The translations under genes were made by a program, and so were the position numbers. Below, in pieces: positions 8,405-58,431 of a stretch of DNA of 64,000 nt. The stretch comes from a phage: sequence record PZ452610.1. One strand, 5' to 3'. The number at the start of each line of letters is the position of its first letter. The stretch's first letter is position 1. The notes beneath the pieces were generated by a model that worked only from the letters and a program-made list of their open reading frames with translations, did not search any database and was not told the origin of the DNA.

Positions 8405-9013
8405 TCAGTAACTGACAATAGACAGATTCCAGATTGTATAACGTCCATCTTGAATAATAGAATCTACACGCAGTGTAGTCCCTATAGGGAGCATAAATTC
8501 ACATTCGTCAGATATAAGTCTAGCATTAGACCGTCTTGTCGCTTCAGGGAAAGCTCCATTGAACTCACAAGATGGCGCAGCCAGAATCATGTTAAGCATA
8601 TGTTCACGGAAGTTGAAAGCAAATGGTGCATCTTTGATGCAGAACATATTAAATGTTCCGTAAAAATTATACGAAGCAAAGTTACGTGCTACACCGAACA
8701 CTGGACTGAAGCTCATTACTCTGTCAAATTTAATAATACTACCAATGCCTTTATCATCAAGTGTAGCCATAGTTTTCTTAGAGATTCCACGATACATTGT
8801 CTCAGGAACAGAAGACGACCAATTTCTACGAACAATTGCACTTAAATCTTTTTGGATGCTATCAGGCTTGTTTTCCATACACTGCCATAGTACACTTTGT
8901 TCAATGTCACTGAATTGCTCATCGATTTTGTACTGAAGCATATCTTGATAATCCGGGCATTGAGCACGACGAACCATTTCTTCAATTTCACACTCGTTAT
9001 ACGGCATAAACAT
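8405..9013 (-). CDS. modA: ADP-ribosyltransferase ModA-like
   Basis: 202 aa; R (YRGIS) ... S (SFSP) ... E-x-E (DECEF) arrangement of R-S-E ARTs; paralog of next gene; T4 map position. Confidence 0.6.
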   Translation of the reverse strand: MFMPYNECEIEEMVRRAQCPDYQDMLQYKIDEQFSDIEQSVLWQCMENKPDSIQKDLSAIVRRNWSSSVPETMYRGISKKTMATLDDKGIGSIIKFDRVMSFSPVFGVARNFASYNFYGTFNMFCIKDAPFAFNFREHMLNMILAAPSCEFNGAFPEATRRSNARLISDECEFMLPIGTTLRVDSIIQDGRYTIWNLSIVSY

Positions 9014-9070: not shown

Positions 9071-9652
9071 CTAAAAATTCAACATTTTCAAATGAATGAT
9101 TTTGTATAATCGAGATAAAGGGTCATATTCTAAGTCTTCAATTTCCACAATCTCAAATCTAGAGATACCTGAGACCATGTACTCTTGTTCAGATTCAATC
9201 ATATCTAGGACGTCAACACGCGTTTCTTCCATAACATGCTTAGGGTTCTTTCCGGCGAGTACAATGTTAATCATGTTTTGGTAGTAATCAAAAATGAATG
9301 GAGCATTCCTGAGACTAAGAATAGTGTACGTCTGATACTCCCAACTCCCAGAGAATTGACGAGCTGTACTGAAATCAGTTGTGAACGATGTTACTCGTCC
9401 AGGAGACCAATGGCATCCAACAGAAAGAAGGGAAAGACGTTCTACTTCTTCTGGAGTTACACCACGGTAGAGTTCTACTGGTACTGTAGAAGACATATGC
9501 TTACGAACAAGATGGTCTAATTCATAGTGGAAATCCGGGTCTTCCTTAGAATCGGTGCAAGCCCAGAGAATGTTTTGTTCTTGGCGGGTGAATTTGCTAT
9601 CAATCAGATTTGTTAGGTATTCGCGTTCTTGAAGTTCAGATTGACATGTCAT
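9071..9652 (-). CDS. modB: ADP-ribosyltransferase ModB-like
   Basis: 193 aa; YRGV ... SFTTDFS ... SEQEY motifs; paralogous to modA-like ORF. Confidence 0.6.
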   Translation of the reverse strand: MTCQSELQEREYLTNLIDSKFTRQEQNILWACTDSKEDPDFHYELDHLVRKHMSSTVPVELYRGVTPEEVERLSLLSVGCHWSPGRVTSFTTDFSTARQFSGSWEYQTYTILSLRNAPFIFDYYQNMINIVLAGKNPKHVMEETRVDVLDMIESEQEYMVSGISRFEIVEIEDLEYDPLSRLYKIIHLKMLNF

Positions 9653-14412: not shown

Positions 14413-15072
14413 TTAACCTCGATTCATAAATGCATTAAATATTTGGTCATCAACAGAAATTTCTAATTCGACTTCAATTGCTTCGGCCTTTTCTTCAGGT
14501 GGTAATTCGTATCCACACACTACAATTTTTTCATCGATATCAAAATATACAGAAGCAATACGATTAATGTTATTTTCAGTTAAGTCCAAATCAACATCAA
14601 CATCTTTTTGGCCTACACTTAGAGGATAACTAATACGGGTTATTTTATTATCTTTAACAAAGAGTCCACCAACATACTCTGTACTACGTTTGAAGTTTAC
14701 ACGTTTCCGAATTGAAAGATATGATACATCTTTACCGTGAGCTCGGCTCATAGGACATAATGAATAGCTAGAATAAGAGATGTCAAATCCTACACCTTCA
14801 ATATGAGCCAACGCGTCATGATTAAACCAATTATAATCATATGCCAAATCCATTATATTGTAATATGTGAAAGGCACAGGATTAACATCATATGTTGTAC
14901 CTTTAAAATCTGCCCAGGCAACGATTTCGTTATCTTTAACAATTACAAAAATTACACCAATATGGTATCCTTTATTATTTTCATTCGGCGTTATATTATA
15001 ACATTGTGCATTAGGAAATTTACCATATTTAAATGGTGCGTTTTTGTGCATATAATAAATCATATTATTCAC
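14413..15072 (-). CDS. Hypothetical protein, 219 aa (61.2 position; candidate AdfA-like anti-DarT factor by synteny only)
   Basis: Position between 61 and sp as for T4 61.2; no motif recognised. Confidence 0.5.
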   Translation of the reverse strand: MNNMIYYMHKNAPFKYGKFPNAQCYNITPNENNKGYHIGVIFVIVKDNEIVAWADFKGTTYDVNPVPFTYYNIMDLAYDYNWFNHDALAHIEGVGFDISYSSYSLCPMSRAHGKDVSYLSIRKRVNFKRSTEYVGGLFVKDNKITRISYPLSVGQKDVDVDLDLTENNINRIASVYFDIDEKIVVCGYELPPEEKAEAIEVELEISVDDQIFNAFMNRG

Positions 15073-54839: not shown

Positions 54840-55052
54840 TTAATTTTGGCCAGTATTTATTTTTCGCCTTTGGACGGCCTTAACATCTGTGAGGTATTTT
54901 TCCAGCTTGCGCTTGCGTGTATAATCAGCTTTAGAACCAGTTTGACGGATATCCTCGTTTAAATGAGAAATAGAATGTCCTAATTCTCTTCGGATTTCAT
55001 CCAATTGGGTTACAGTAAGATTACGAAGTTGTCTTTCGTTTAATTGCTGCAT
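54840..55052 (-). CDS. Hypothetical protein, 70 aa
   Basis: ORF between rI and tk. Confidence 0.45.
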
Positions 55053-55079
55053 ATATACCTCTTGGTTAGATATTAGTAT

Positions 55080-55661
55080 TTATAACAACCCTGTCAAATC
55101 ATTCCAATGCTTCCGGCATAATGACACGTATCTATCGGTATCACCAATTTCAATTTGACTGCCATCTGTAATTGGAAGTCCGTCTTCCGTGACTCTAGCT
55201 ACCATTGTGGCCTTTTTACCGCAATGACAGACACCTTTAAGTTCAACAAGCTTATCGGCAATAGCCATTAATGCTTGAGAACCTTCAAATAGATTACCTT
55301 TAAAATCTGTTCGTAGTCCATATGCCATTACTGGCACATTGTATACGTCAACAATACGACTAAGTTGATACACCTTTTCAGTAGTTAAGAACTGAGCTTC
55401 GTCAACAAATACACAGTGAATATCCTTTTGTGCTGCAGCCCATTTATAGAATTCAAAGATATCCATGTCTTTTGTAATTATATTGGCATCCTGACGAATA
55501 CCAATACGAGAGACTATTTCACCTTTTGAATCACGAGTATCAATAGCCGGTTTAAGAACTAATACACCCATGCCACGTTCTTTATAGTTATGTGCGGCAG
55601 TAAGTAATGAAGAAGACTTACCAGCGTTCATAGCGGCATATGTAAAAATTAAACTAGCCAT
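55080..55661 (-). CDS. tk: Thymidine kinase
   Basis: 193 aa; Walker A AAMNAGKSS, zinc ribbon CHCGKK...CRKHW. Confidence 0.95.
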   Translation of the reverse strand: MASLIFTYAAMNAGKSSSLLTAAHNYKERGMGVLVLKPAIDTRDSKGEIVSRIGIRQDANIITKDMDIFEFYKWAAAQKDIHCVFVDEAQFLTTEKVYQLSRIVDVYNVPVMAYGLRTDFKGNLFEGSQALMAIADKLVELKGVCHCGKKATMVARVTEDGLPITDGSQIEIGDTDRYVSLCRKHWNDLTGLL

Positions 55662-55670
55662 AAGAGTCCC

Positions 55671-55853
55671 TTATAGTGAATTCACGTAGTCAATGAGTTC
55701 TTGTTCTTTCCTGTCAAATGATTCCAACAATGCTTGATATTCTTCATCTGTTAAAGGAGCATATTCATCGTACGCATTGGTGGCTGCTTGCTCATCCAAT
55801 AGGTCATGGATAAGTTCGAATAGTTTAGCTTTCTCTTCTTTAGTTAATTTCAT
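55671..55853 (-). CDS. Hypothetical acidic protein, 60 aa (tk.1 position)
   Basis: ORF. Confidence 0.45.
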   Translation of the reverse strand: MKLTKEEKAKLFELIHDLLDEQAATNAYDEYAPLTDEEYQALLESFDRKEQELIDYVNSL

Positions 55854-56056
55854 TTAGGTTCACCTTCTTTAACGAAATCTGGGTAAGGGTAAAATCCTGA
55901 GTAAAACCCTTCACCTTTATGATTGCTACAACCTTTGTTCGAACAGTAACACCAATAATCAAAATCACAAGCCATTTCGTCATTGCATAAAGCAAAAACT
56001 ACAGGCCATTCGCATTTTTCGCATTTAGCACCTGTAAGAATTTTTGTTTGACTCAT
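55850..56056 (-). CDS. Cys-rich small protein, about 68 aa (tk.2 position)
   Basis: CEKCEWP...CNDEMACDFDYWCYCSNKGCSNH; ATG 56056 overlaps upstream stop. Confidence 0.45.
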   Translation of the reverse strand: MSQTKILTGAKCEKCEWPVVFALCNDEMACDFDYWCYCSNKGCSNHKGEGFYSGFYPYPDFVKEGEPK

Positions 56057-56265
56057 AACCATGTCACCTTTAAGCAATATTCTTCTACATGTTGTTTACG
56101 GCCTTTCTTATCAATAAAGGTATATTCAACGAATGTTCCGATGTAGTCTTTATCTACATCATGTGGACTATTAATTGGACATTTGGTACGACAAATGCGT
56201 TCCCATTGACGAATAATTACTGCCTTATTCTTTGGGTCATATGGATGTGGATAATGTATATTCAT
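56053..56265 (-). CDS. Hypothetical protein, about 70 aa (tk.3 position)
   Basis: ATG 56265 overlaps stop of the macro-domain gene. Confidence 0.45.
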   Translation of the reverse strand: MNIHYPHPYDPKNKAVIIRQWERICRTKCPINSPHDVDKDYIGTFVEYTFIDKKGRKQHVEEYCLKVTWL

Positions 56266-56759
56266 AATAACGGTTCCCAATCAACAATCACAATTTCTAG
56301 TTTAGTGGAATACGTATCTAAAATCTCTTCGATGACATCCCAGTTTCCGCCACCGATACCTGCACCAATTCTTGGCATATAAATTACAGGCTTTGTTATC
56401 TTATTCTTTCCGAATTCATTTAATTCTATTATACAATTCATTAAAGCAGAGTACTCAAAATTAGGTCCCGGCTCAAACTGCGTATAAAGATTAAAGCAAT
56501 AAGCTTTATGGGTCTTAAAATATTTTTCATAAACCGAATAAGTCCCGAGTTTAGACTCGTCTCCGAATTCGGTTTGAAGTTTATCGGCTTCCAGAATTTT
56601 TGGATAAGCCTTTGCTAATTGTCCTGCCACACCGGCGCCCATTGTATGAAAACAATTACACCCATGAGCAATATTATTACCTTTAGAAAACAGGGCGACA
56701 ATATCGCCCTTGATATAGTTTTTAATCACTTGCTGCAAGTCCTCTAGTATAAGAGTCAA
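56262..56759 (-). CDS. Macro-domain protein, putative ADP-ribose binding/hydrolase (tk.4 position); non-ATG start
   Basis: 165 aa; Gly-rich motifs NIAHGCNCFHTMGAGVAGQL and PRIGAGIGGGNW typical of macro domains. Confidence 0.65.
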   Translation of the reverse strand: MTLILEDLQQVIKNYIKGDIVALFSKGNNIAHGCNCFHTMGAGVAGQLAKAYPKILEADKLQTEFGDESKLGTYSVYEKYFKTHKAYCFNLYTQFEPGPNFEYSALMNCIIELNEFGKNKITKPVIYMPRIGAGIGGGNWDVIEEILDTYSTKLEIVIVDWEPLL

Positions 56760-57069
56760 CTAGACGGTCCACCATAGAATTGCATGCTGCCTTATCTTTA
56801 GGTTCCGCCACCGAGCATTCTAATATTTGCCATTTTTTATAGTATCTTTTAATTAAGGTAGACGCCTTGAACCTACTAGACGCCCCATCTTTTTCTCCGT
56901 CTTTATACGCGTATAACAATTTTTGTGAAAAATCTACTTTACACTCTTGACTTTTACCACAATAATCAGACGCCGTTCTGTTTGTATACTCCGTTACATC
57001 AGTATATGTAGTATTAGCAAGAGCGTTAAATGAAACCAAGCTAACTATTAAAGCCAACATTTTGGTCAT
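56722..57069 (-). CDS. vs: Secreted protein, 115 aa, at the T4 vs position
   Basis: Same length as T4 Vs; N-terminal signal peptide MTKMLALIVSLVSFNALA. Confidence 0.45.
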   Translation of the reverse strand: MTKMLALIVSLVSFNALANTTYTDVTEYTNRTASDYCGKSQECKVDFSQKLLYAYKDGEKDGASSRFKASTLIKRYYKKWQILECSVAEPKDKAACNSMVDRLVDSYTRGLAASD

Positions 57070-57608
57070 TCTTTTATTTCCAGTAGTTTATTTGATTTAA
57101 GGTAATTAGCCTTTTCTAGGACTTCAGAAGCATATTTACTTCCAGCACTTGTCTTCCATCCCGCATTATATGAGGATATGGCTTTTCTTATATCCCCGTT
57201 ATGTATATTTAACCAATAAGAAAATTCGATATAAGCCCATCTGGCTGAATTAGACCGCTTAGATAGCATTTTCTTAATTTGGGCATCAGTCATATTATAA
57301 CCAAGCTGGTTAATTCTTGCCCTCATTGTTGGTAGATAGTTTTGGAACATTCCATACGCATGGTGACCTTTCTTATCTTTAAGATTAATACCGGCAGATG
57401 ATTCTTGCCATAGTATTGCGGCCATTATGTATCCAAGTCCTTTCTTATGCATATTTTCATGCGTTTTAAATTTTCCATCCTTAGAAAACTGTTCCCCAAA
57501 CTGATAAGCATAATTCAAGTTATCGAGTTGGACATTACTAAAAGTATGCTCGGAGCTATGTGCTGATAACGAAAGAGCAAATAGACCAGCGAGTAGTGCT
57601 TTTCTCAT
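57066..57608 (-). CDS. vs.1: Secreted lytic-transglycosylase-like protein (vs.1 position)
   Basis: Signal peptide MRKALLAGLFALSLSA; SLT-like catalytic segment AAILWQESSAG. Confidence 0.6.
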   Translation of the reverse strand: MRKALLAGLFALSLSAHSSEHTFSNVQLDNLNYAYQFGEQFSKDGKFKTHENMHKKGLGYIMAAILWQESSAGINLKDKKGHHAYGMFQNYLPTMRARINQLGYNMTDAQIKKMLSKRSNSARWAYIEFSYWLNIHNGDIRKAISSYNAGWKTSAGSKYASEVLEKANYLKSNKLLEIKE

Positions 57609-57616
57609 GTTTACCT

Positions 57617-58075
57617 CTAGATTTTAATCACTGCTTTAGAAGCTTTTCCTGGTAGTCGTTTACTGTTAATAATAGCCATTCTGCATTGAAGAGTCTTCAT
57701 TTTGAATGCTGGATTTTCGCGACAAACTGTAAGTCCTAACCAAAGATTTCCATCAGTTATTTCTAAACGGCCTGGGCGATATTCGACACCTTCGACAAAA
57801 TCTTCATCAACATCTGGACGGGCTGGCATTGATAAAAATTCTGCAACTTCTTTAACATGATTTTTTACTTTATGAAATAATTCAAAAACGTAATTCTCAT
57901 CTATTTCTCTCTGGATGGCACGATCTAAGAGATGTTGAGAATACTTGATATGAAAGCCTGGTAGTCCAAGAGACTTTGCAGCATCTTTTATACTGGCATT
58001 TATTTTGCGGAACTCCGTTTCAAAGATTCGACGGAGTTTATTGCGGCGGATAAAAACGTCTGAATTGATAGTCAT
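57617..58075 (-). CDS. regB: RegB site-specific endoribonuclease
   Basis: 152 aa; MTINSDVFIRRNKLRRIFETEFRKIN... and C-terminal RLPGKASKAVIKI match T4 RegB. Confidence 0.9.
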   Translation of the reverse strand: MTINSDVFIRRNKLRRIFETEFRKINASIKDAAKSLGLPGFHIKYSQHLLDRAIQREIDENYVFELFHKVKNHVKEVAEFLSMPARPDVDEDFVEGVEYRPGRLEITDGNLWLGLTVCRENPAFKMKTLQCRMAIINSKRLPGKASKAVIKI

Positions 58076-58103
58076 TTTGATTTCTCCTCTAGTTGACAGG
58101 TCT

Positions 58104-58132
58104 ATAGTAACACAACTAGAGGAGAAGTAAAC
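58104..58132 (-). promoter_or_regulatory. Early promoter (GTTTAC - 17 nt - TACTAT) for regB with spacer/SD inverted repeat
   Basis: Spacer TCTCCTCTAGTTG is the exact complement of leader CAACTAGAGGAGA; covaries with the 16701-16729 promoter. Confidence 0.6.
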
Positions 58133-58431
58133 TACTCTTTGAAAGGAATTAACTTTTTAACTGCTTTAGATACTTCGTCACGAACCTGGTGGAAGTTCTT
58201 GAGCTGTTCAAGGCGTTGTTCGTAATACGCAATCTCATCTTCTTCAAGACAATCGTCAGCGTCTTCTTTCAGATATGCCTTGTACTCATTAAAGAGGGCC
58301 CATAGGCGGTTCTCAAAGTCATCAAGGCTTTGAATTTTCTTGTGCTTCGGAACAAGGCCAAAAGGATTGCTTTCAGTTATGCGTCGAGATGCTTCATAAT
58401 GAGTTCCAAAGCCTGATAGGATTTGAGCCAT
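58132..58431 (-). CDS. Hypothetical protein, about 99 aa
   Basis: ATG (MAQILSGF...) overlapping upstream stop; track ORF begins further upstream. Confidence 0.45.

Follow-up and report, generated by a model that had tools for sequence, protein, structure and literature searches.

The toxin DarT2 ADP-ribosylates thymidine in TNTC motifs of single-stranded DNA (ssDNA) and blocks replication (PMC11825919, PMC13309987), and macrodomain proteins acting against it have been described from two kinds of phage. In the HIDEN-SEQ preprint of November 2025, tk.4 was the sole significant T4 gene depleted on a DarTG2 host in transposon sequencing, a clean T4 tk.4 knock-out was DarTG2-sensitive and non-essential on plain K-12, and Tk.4 was likened to the macrodomain of Mycobacterium tuberculosis (Mtb) DarG and named AdfM, for anti-DarT factor Macrodomain (bioRxiv 10.1101/2025.11.20.689424). 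PhiKZ gp104, the ‘AdfM’ of chimalliviruses, removes DarT2 marks from DNA biochemically and is impaired by the N23A change (Cell Rep 2026, PMC13309987). Among cellular macrodomains, SCO6735 of Streptomyces coelicolor is more efficient than DarG or TARG1 at taking thymidine-linked ADP-ribose off ssDNA and rescues cells from DarT toxicity; in a published structure-based alignment that includes Bt_1257 (BT1257 of Bacteroides thetaiotaomicron), its Gln85 takes the place of TARG1 K84 and DarG K80, the Q85A and Q85E variants are inactive, and a water-mediated, backbone-assisted mechanism has been proposed (PMC9411070). Here we compare with these proteins a macro-domain gene (hereafter, the macro gene, encoding the macro protein) at positions 56262–56729, minus strand, in a 64,000-nucleotide stretch of phage DNA (sequence record PZ452610.1), which is referred to as the window.

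The macro protein consists of 155 residues (17.4 kDa and pI 5.6, both computed), of which 131 (85%) are identical to those of T4 Tk.4 in an alignment without gaps. The gene order tk, tk.1, tk.2, tk.3, tk.4, vs, vs.1, regB is the same as in T4 and also matches that of T6 and JK45, with tk.3 (DUF7202) downstream of the macro gene and vs upstream. Positions 55000–58200 are 100% identical to Escherichia coli O157 typing phages 3, 6, and 13. The first of these, phage 3 (KP869101), belongs to the genus Mosigvirus, family Straboviridae, and its coding sequence named “macro domain protein” (AKE45174.1, 155 residues) corresponds to 56262–56729 in window coordinates. T4 Tk.4 shares with the macro protein the flanking tk.3 and vs, the Shine-Dalgarno sequence, the start position, and all conserved pocket residues, and differs from it by 24 substitutions, including a Lys in the second loop (GIGKGNW) in place of G126 here (GIGGGNW), as well as by its ATG start with a 4-nt overlap with vs (ATGA), where the present gene has GTG and an 8-nt overlap (GTGATTAA). 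The T4 tk.4 record bears the note “contains A1pp phosphatase motif”. Judged by alignment and gene order, the macro gene is the Mosigvirus orthologue of T4 tk.4/adfM. The gene is already annotated and the function of its orthologue already assigned, and the macro-domain finding is correct and already known; the sole point beyond the published work is a mechanistic one, namely, a Gln in place of the catalytic Lys found in DarG and TARG1. The gene and the parts of its product that bear on this point are as follows.

56262–56729, minus strand: macro-domain gene, orthologue of T4 tk.4/adfM (Pfam, T4 alignment, KP869101 annotation, and AlphaFold2 model).
56619–56666, minus strand: first Gly-rich loop with the predicted ADP-ribose-pocket residues His22 and Asn25, residues H22–Q37, HGCNCFHTMGAGVAGQ (conservation among 65 family members).
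56478–56492, minus strand: NLYTQ, residues N80–Q84, with Gln84 at the catalytic-Lys position of TARG1 (K84) and DarG (K80) (alignments).
56340–56375, minus strand: second Gly-rich (diphosphate-binding) loop, residues P119–W130, PRIGAGIGGGNW (P119, G122, and G124 invariant).

The Pfam family Macro (PF01661) was matched with 28.1 bits (cut-off, 22; E-value, 2.2e-6) over profile positions 2–117 of 118. In a phmmer search against PDB, the best matches were BT1257 (E-value, 6e-11), yeast Poa1p (1.4e-8), and SCO6735 (6.6e-5), followed by the weaker TARG1 (about 7e-4) and DarG macrodomains (about 1e-3 to 6e-3); a profile of the 65-sequence family lifted the matches to BT1257, Poa1p, SCO6735, TARG1, and DarG to E-values of 1e-11 to 1e-17. 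An AlphaFold2 model built from the same 65-sequence alignment (predicted local distance difference test, 95.6; predicted template modeling score, 0.91) shows the three-layer α/β/α fold of macro domains, and its top Foldseek matches were TARG1, Poa1p, BT1257, DarG, and SCO6735, so that the nearest structural neighbors are members of the ALC1/TARG1-like class, set apart from the other macro classes. Because the Foldseek, profile, and PDB matches favor members of this class, the modeled macro protein is placed structurally in the ALC1/TARG1-like class. An earlier note, which was made from the sequence without database searches, had called a macro domain here from two Gly-rich loops; the call is right, as hidden Markov model, sequence, and fold all agree, and both of the quoted loops are present at the positions listed above. 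His22, Asn25, Gly31, and Gly33 are invariant or nearly so among the 65 family members, and Gly31, Gly33, Gly122, and Gly124 are invariant in the 65 homologues and remain so when TARG1, DarG, and PhiKZ AdfM are included. ADP-ribose would be expected to sit in the predicted cleft formed by the two Gly-rich loops.

The putative active site departs from that of human TARG1/OARD1 at both members of the Lys84/Asp125 dyad. In the column of the class catalytic Lys, part of a ‘TK’ motif, the macro protein has Gln84 (‘YTQ’), and the dyad partner Asp125 of TARG1 is replaced by Gly126 (GCGLDRLQW in TARG1 versus GAGIGGGNW, profile alignment); DarG likewise has no equivalent of TARG1 Asp125. Asn80, Tyr82, Thr83, and Gln84 are invariant in the 65 family members. 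Gln84 aligns with the catalytic Lys of TARG1 (“LITK”) and the Gln of BT1257 in the HMMER profile alignment, which was used for BT1257 because this protein was misaligned around the Gln by MAFFT, and with the “PTK” Lys of Mtb DarG, Thermus aquaticus (Taq) DarG, and PhiKZ gp104 in the MAFFT alignment. The second loop follows the motif PRIG[AC]G[IL][AG]GG.W in the macro protein (PRIGAGIGGGNW), SCO6735 (PRIGCGLAGGTW), and BT1257 (PRIGCGLAGGKW), and is unlike the corresponding PPLGxGNGGLxW of DarG. In the first loop, H22–G23–C24–N25 is conserved and its spacing would suit the His/backbone carbonyl/Asn triad of SCO6735 (H24, V25, N27), although the residue-level alignment did not reach the N-terminus of SCO6735. 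SCO6735 and BT1257 thus resemble the macro protein in having a Gln at the class catalytic-Lys site and in the shared second-loop motif, whereas they are products of cellular genes with an identity to the macro protein of about 22–30%. By analogy with SCO6735 and BT1257, the chemistry of the macro protein is probably that of the Gln-type ALC1/TARG1-like enzymes, not that of DarG.

We therefore regard it as likely that the macro protein is a stand-alone 155-residue macrodomain enzyme of counter-defense, reversing the DNA marks of DarT2 by Gln-type chemistry. In the proposed course of events, host DarT2 would mark thymidines on single-stranded phage DNA and block its replication; the macro protein would bind the ADP-ribose on phage ssDNA in the cleft between the two Gly-rich loops and cut the ribose–thymine bond, releasing free ADP-ribose and restoring the DNA. 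The distal ribose would be held in position by Gln84, and in the absence of a catalytic lysine the reaction would be started by a water molecule bound to the backbone. A direct binding and inhibition of DarT2 by the macro protein may add to this effect. Several points weigh against such an assignment. Macrodomains are often promiscuous, and other substrates are possible. Residue-level alignment with SCO6735 was recovered solely for the C-terminal loop, and the equivalence to Gln85 is partly transitive, being drawn by way of TARG1 and BT1257, as aligned here, and of the published structure-based alignment. In SCO6735, which also has a long, Lys-rich mobile loop, the high activity on DNA has been ascribed to a strongly electropositive groove (PMC9411070), whereas the macro protein is acidic overall (pI 5.6). 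In addition, the DarTG2 phenotype comes from a preprint on the 85%-identical T4 orthologue and not from this phage, and the removal of ADP-ribose from DNA by T4 Tk.4 was inferred by its authors from fold similarity (10.1101/2025.11.20.689424).

A relevance to host ADP-ribosylating defenses, which the earlier note had anticipated, is borne out by the need of T4 for tk.4 on a DarTG2 host, and the plating on DarTG-carrying hosts that it proposed has already been carried out for the T4 orthologue, with the knock-out being sensitive to DarTG2 (10.1101/2025.11.20.689424). AdfN (gp30.3) is a NADAR protein that acts against DarTG1 and not against DarTG2; T4 without adfN is still resistant to DarTG2 (PMC11825919). 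The CmdTAC paper, in which tk.4 is unmentioned, reports a robust defense against T-even phages; since these phages are robustly blocked, the macrodomain evidently does not neutralize CmdT.

The similarity to Poa1p, as good as or better than that to SCO6735 or DarG, also weighs against this assignment and would suit an enzyme of small molecules, that is, an ADP-ribose-1''-phosphate phosphatase or O-acetyl-ADP-ribose deacetylase in the ‘A1pp phosphatase’ sense, which would clear soluble ADP-ribose derivatives arising from RNA repair or from host NAD-based immune signaling. The phosphatase names derived from homology point the same way, but they are labels and not functional tests. The characterized substrate of Poa1p is ADP-ribose-1''-phosphate (Appr1p), and those of TARG1 are ADP-ribosylated Glu/Asp in protein and O-acetyl-ADP-ribose. 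Poa1p has an inserted segment and a Ser at the position of Gln84, whereas the Gln is invariant in the T4-type family and essential in the DNA-active SCO6735; moreover, the sole known phenotype of an orthologue is sensitivity to DarTG2, whose toxin DarT2 modifies DNA (10.1101/2025.11.20.689424). A small-molecule role is consequently regarded as unlikely. Binding without catalysis has also to be weighed, in which the macro protein would act as a stoichiometric inhibitor of DarT2 with hydrolysis being dispensable. Catalytically dead SCO6735 Q85A, DarG K80A, and TARG1 K84A inhibit DarT in vitro, SCO6735 most strongly (PMC9411070), and the phage anti-DarT factors AdfA and AdfB bind the toxin (PMC11825919). 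However, the macro protein is without the C-terminal DarT-binding domain of DarG, and in phage and bacterial relatives with as little as 35% identity, His22, Asn25, Gln84, and both Gly-rich loops do not vary, pointing to selection on catalysis; pure inhibition would accordingly have a slim chance of being the whole explanation.

The earlier note had also connected the gene with the ModA/ModB transferases of the phage itself, and the macro protein could in principle erase the marks of Alt, ModA, and ModB, taking ADP-ribose or ADP-ribose-linked RNA chains off host proteins and thereby tuning or timing the takeover. Two genes for Mod-like transferases are indeed present in the window. However, Alt, ModA, and ModB of T4 modify arginine, and the N-glycosidic bonds of ADP-ribosylated arginine are cut by hydrolases of the ARH1/DraG type and not by macrodomains. 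Members of the TARG1 class act on Glu/Asp esters and thymidine, and, to our knowledge, reversal of arginine ADP-ribosylation is not described for macrodomains of the ALC1/TARG1-like class. Some 47 kb separate the macro gene from the mod genes, to which it is unlinked, and no evidence connecting them emerged. SCO6735 acts on ADP-ribosylated protein as well as on DNA (PMC9411070), which would be compatible with such an eraser, but the defect of the T4 knock-out is specific to DarTG2 hosts (10.1101/2025.11.20.689424), and this role is judged to be very improbable. Reversal of DarT2 marks on DNA remains our preferred reading.

With respect to its descent, membership of the macro protein in the DarG family was rejected, as it scored 31.9 bits on the NCBIfam equivalog NF048014 (cut-off, 250) and 33.2 bits on the PADLOC DarG model, and matched the DarG models only at positions 4–146 of 338. 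The DarG proteins of DarTG2 systems (T. aquaticus, PDB entries 5M31 and 5M3E; M. tuberculosis, 5M3I) have the catalytic Lys80, a C-terminal DarT-binding domain, and an adjacent darT gene, whereas the macro protein has Gln, comprises the macro domain only, and is neighbored by vs and tk.3. PhiKZ gp104 is, like the macro protein, a stand-alone phage macrodomain with the conserved Asn, its Asn23 aligning with Asn25, and shares the name AdfM with T4 Tk.4. In contrast to the macro protein, however, it is of the DarG type, with a Lys in FPTKDNWR, a match to Mtb DarG with an E-value of 9e-25, and 133–138 bits over the same region of the DarG models; the protein enters the phage nucleus by import, and its alignment with the macro protein extends over 23 residues only. 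As far as these sequence comparisons go, the T4-type and PhiKZ-type AdfM are different macrodomain lineages under one name. Among 50,697 phage records searched with tblastn (E-value ≤ 1e-5), the T4 type was found in 2801 and the PhiKZ type in 276.

A scan of bacterial genomes (one per species), with search patterns that did not include the Gln motif, yielded 373 relatives, and the best 80 were examined. They were 35–45% identical to the macro protein and came from diverse taxa, including Ruegeria, Desulfobacter, Verrucomicrobia, and Hymenobacter. The column of Gln84 (N-[AL]-Y-T-Q) was occupied by Gln in 80 of these 80 closest relatives, a count independent of how the loci were found, since the motif lay outside the scan patterns. 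A single-query tblastn, which could miss very divergent DarTs, detected no DarT2 homologue at a distance of up to 4 kb from these 80 loci (best E-value, 0.78). An origin as an orphan antitoxin was rejected because no DarT2 was found with this single query beside the 80 closest bacterial relatives; the uniform Gln together with the lack of DarT2 neighbors speaks for a stand-alone family rather than a detached antitoxin. We lean, if narrowly, toward the view that T4-type AdfM is not a captured DarG but was copied by phages from a stand-alone family of Gln-type macrodomains (N-x-Y-T-Q, as in SCO6735 and BT1257) that is widespread in bacteria, protects DNA, and works by a lysine-independent, water-mediated mechanism.

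The N-terminus of the macro protein is defined by the following features at the junction with vs.

56727–56729, minus strand: GTG start codon, in an overlap with the 3' end of vs (GTGATTAA; TAA stop of vs, 56722–56724) (position of the ATG in T4, T6, EP01, EI, and M21a).
56740–56744, minus strand: Shine-Dalgarno-like GAGGA, 10 nt upstream of the GTG (sequence).
56730–56759, minus strand: ten open codons (TTG...CAA) before the GTG, inside the vs coding region (relatives without an N-terminal extension).

Read from the TTG directly after an in-frame TAG, the open reading frame (ORF) at 56262–56759, minus strand, would encode 165 residues, the length given in the earlier note. In T4, T6, EP01, Klebsiella phage EI, and Raoultella phage M21a, an ATG is found at the position of codon 11 with an in-frame stop codon immediately upstream, which in T4 tk.4 is a TAG just before the ATG; JK45, like the present phage, has a GTG at the position homologous to the T4 ATG. 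In JK45, too, GAGGA precedes the GTG by 10 nt, whereas the GAGGA of T4 is located 11 nt upstream of the tk.4 ATG. Because the relatives start at codon 11 with a stop directly upstream, the product is assigned 155 residues from the GTG at 56729, and the first 10 codons of the 165-codon frame are almost certainly untranslated. The TTG at 56759 was thus rejected as the start, as was the internal TTG at 56736–56738, which lies 1 nt from the GAGGA and is too close to it. The earlier note was correct in that the start codon is not ATG, but the codon is the GTG at 56729 and not the TTG at 56759, and its frame was 30 nt too long by both the start position of the relatives and the annotation of KP869101. 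The correction of the start matters to anyone cloning the gene.

The surrounding genes are arranged on the minus strand as follows.

55080–58075, minus strand: tk (55080–55661), tk.1, tk.2, tk.3, macro gene, vs (56722–57069), vs.1 (57066–57608), and regB (57617–58075).
56262–56265, minus strand: ATGA overlap of the macro gene TGA stop with the tk.3 ATG (sequence; tk.3 start as annotated in KP869101).

Overlapping stop and start codons link the genes from vs.1 to tk.1, tk.4 among them, into a chain, with GTGATTAA at the vs/tk.4 junction and 4 nt elsewhere (ATGA at tk.4/tk.3), and the chain ends with a 9-nt gap before tk. These overlapping signals suggest translational coupling along a single transcript. 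In the mechanical ORF list, tk.3 (56053–56280) is over-extended to a TTG at 56280, the annotated ATG being at 56265. A scan of 54.8–59.2 kb found 13 promoter-like sites against 14.9 ± 4.2 in shuffled sequence, which is no excess, and 6 terminator-like sites against 2.8 ± 2.0, a mild excess; it yielded no definable transcription unit.

Within codons 7–13 of the macro gene (56692–56710, minus strand), a GC-rich hairpin, AGGGCGAT-ATT-GTCGCCCT followed by GTTTTCT, is located 20 nt downstream of the GTG start, with 8 bp and about −13 kcal/mol. Hairpins of comparable strength are few, as the minus strand of the entire 64-kb window has only about 8 distinct ones. The hairpin is identical in JK45, one pair longer in T4 and T6, and 8 bp long in EP01; in the distant homologue of Vequintavirus FV3 (40% amino acid identity), these codons form another hairpin, of 10 bp, and four other relatives have none. 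The hairpin may serve in attenuation or pausing, may be an mRNA structure that affects translation coupled to vs, or may be a by-product of the codons GGC-GAT-ATT-GTC-GCC.

Both vs and vs.1 encode signal-peptide-like hydrophobic N-termini (MTKMLALIVSLVSFNALA... and MRKALLAGLFALSLSAHS..., respectively), which is unexpected of Vs, taken to be a cytoplasmic ‘valyl-tRNA synthetase modifier’. Vs.1 has a sub-threshold match to the SLT lytic-transglycosylase family (18.8 bits; cut-off, 21.3), and in minimal medium no T4 gene was reported to be more depleted than vs (HIDEN-SEQ preprint, 10.1101/2025.11.20.689424). In KP869101, vs is labeled ‘hypothetical protein’, and vs.1 and several unrelated small ORFs are labeled ‘endoribonuclease RegB’; since 57617–58075 alone matches the RegB Pfam family (2e-69), these RegB labels look like annotation spill-over. 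The two Mod-like ADP-ribosyltransferase ORFs mentioned above are adjacent (8405–9013 and 9071–9652, minus strand; 202 and 193 residues) and 32–37% identical to T4 ModA/ModB, being far more diverged than the neighboring srd (68%). At 14416–15063, minus strand, is an orthologue (66% identical) of T4 gp61.2/AdfA, the anti-DarT1 factor, with an Arg (‘...ENNINR...’) where T4 has a His (‘...ENIINH...’). By this residue it looks like the RB69-type allele of AdfA, which was reported to be unable to neutralize DarT1 until changed by R164H (PMC11825919).

Altogether, T-even-like phages have several tools against ADP-ribosylating toxin–antitoxin defenses, with AdfA and AdfN directed against DarTG1 and AdfM against DarTG2. 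A census of intact copies of the gene helps to predict host range on DarTG2-bearing strains, including the E. coli pathotypes relevant to the O157 typing phages. With Gln in the place of the DarG Lys, the T4-type enzyme should be approached, in its study and in any inhibition that may be required, as SCO6735-like and not as a DarG mimic. If the origin from a stand-alone bacterial Gln-type family is true, the substrate range of the Gln-type enzymes may exceed that of DarG, covering both thymidine-ADP-ribosylated DNA and Glu/Asp-ADP-ribosylated proteins; phages would have recruited two macrodomain lineages against DarT2, a difference hidden by the shared name AdfM, and the Gln type would be roughly ten times commoner than the Lys type in sequenced phages.

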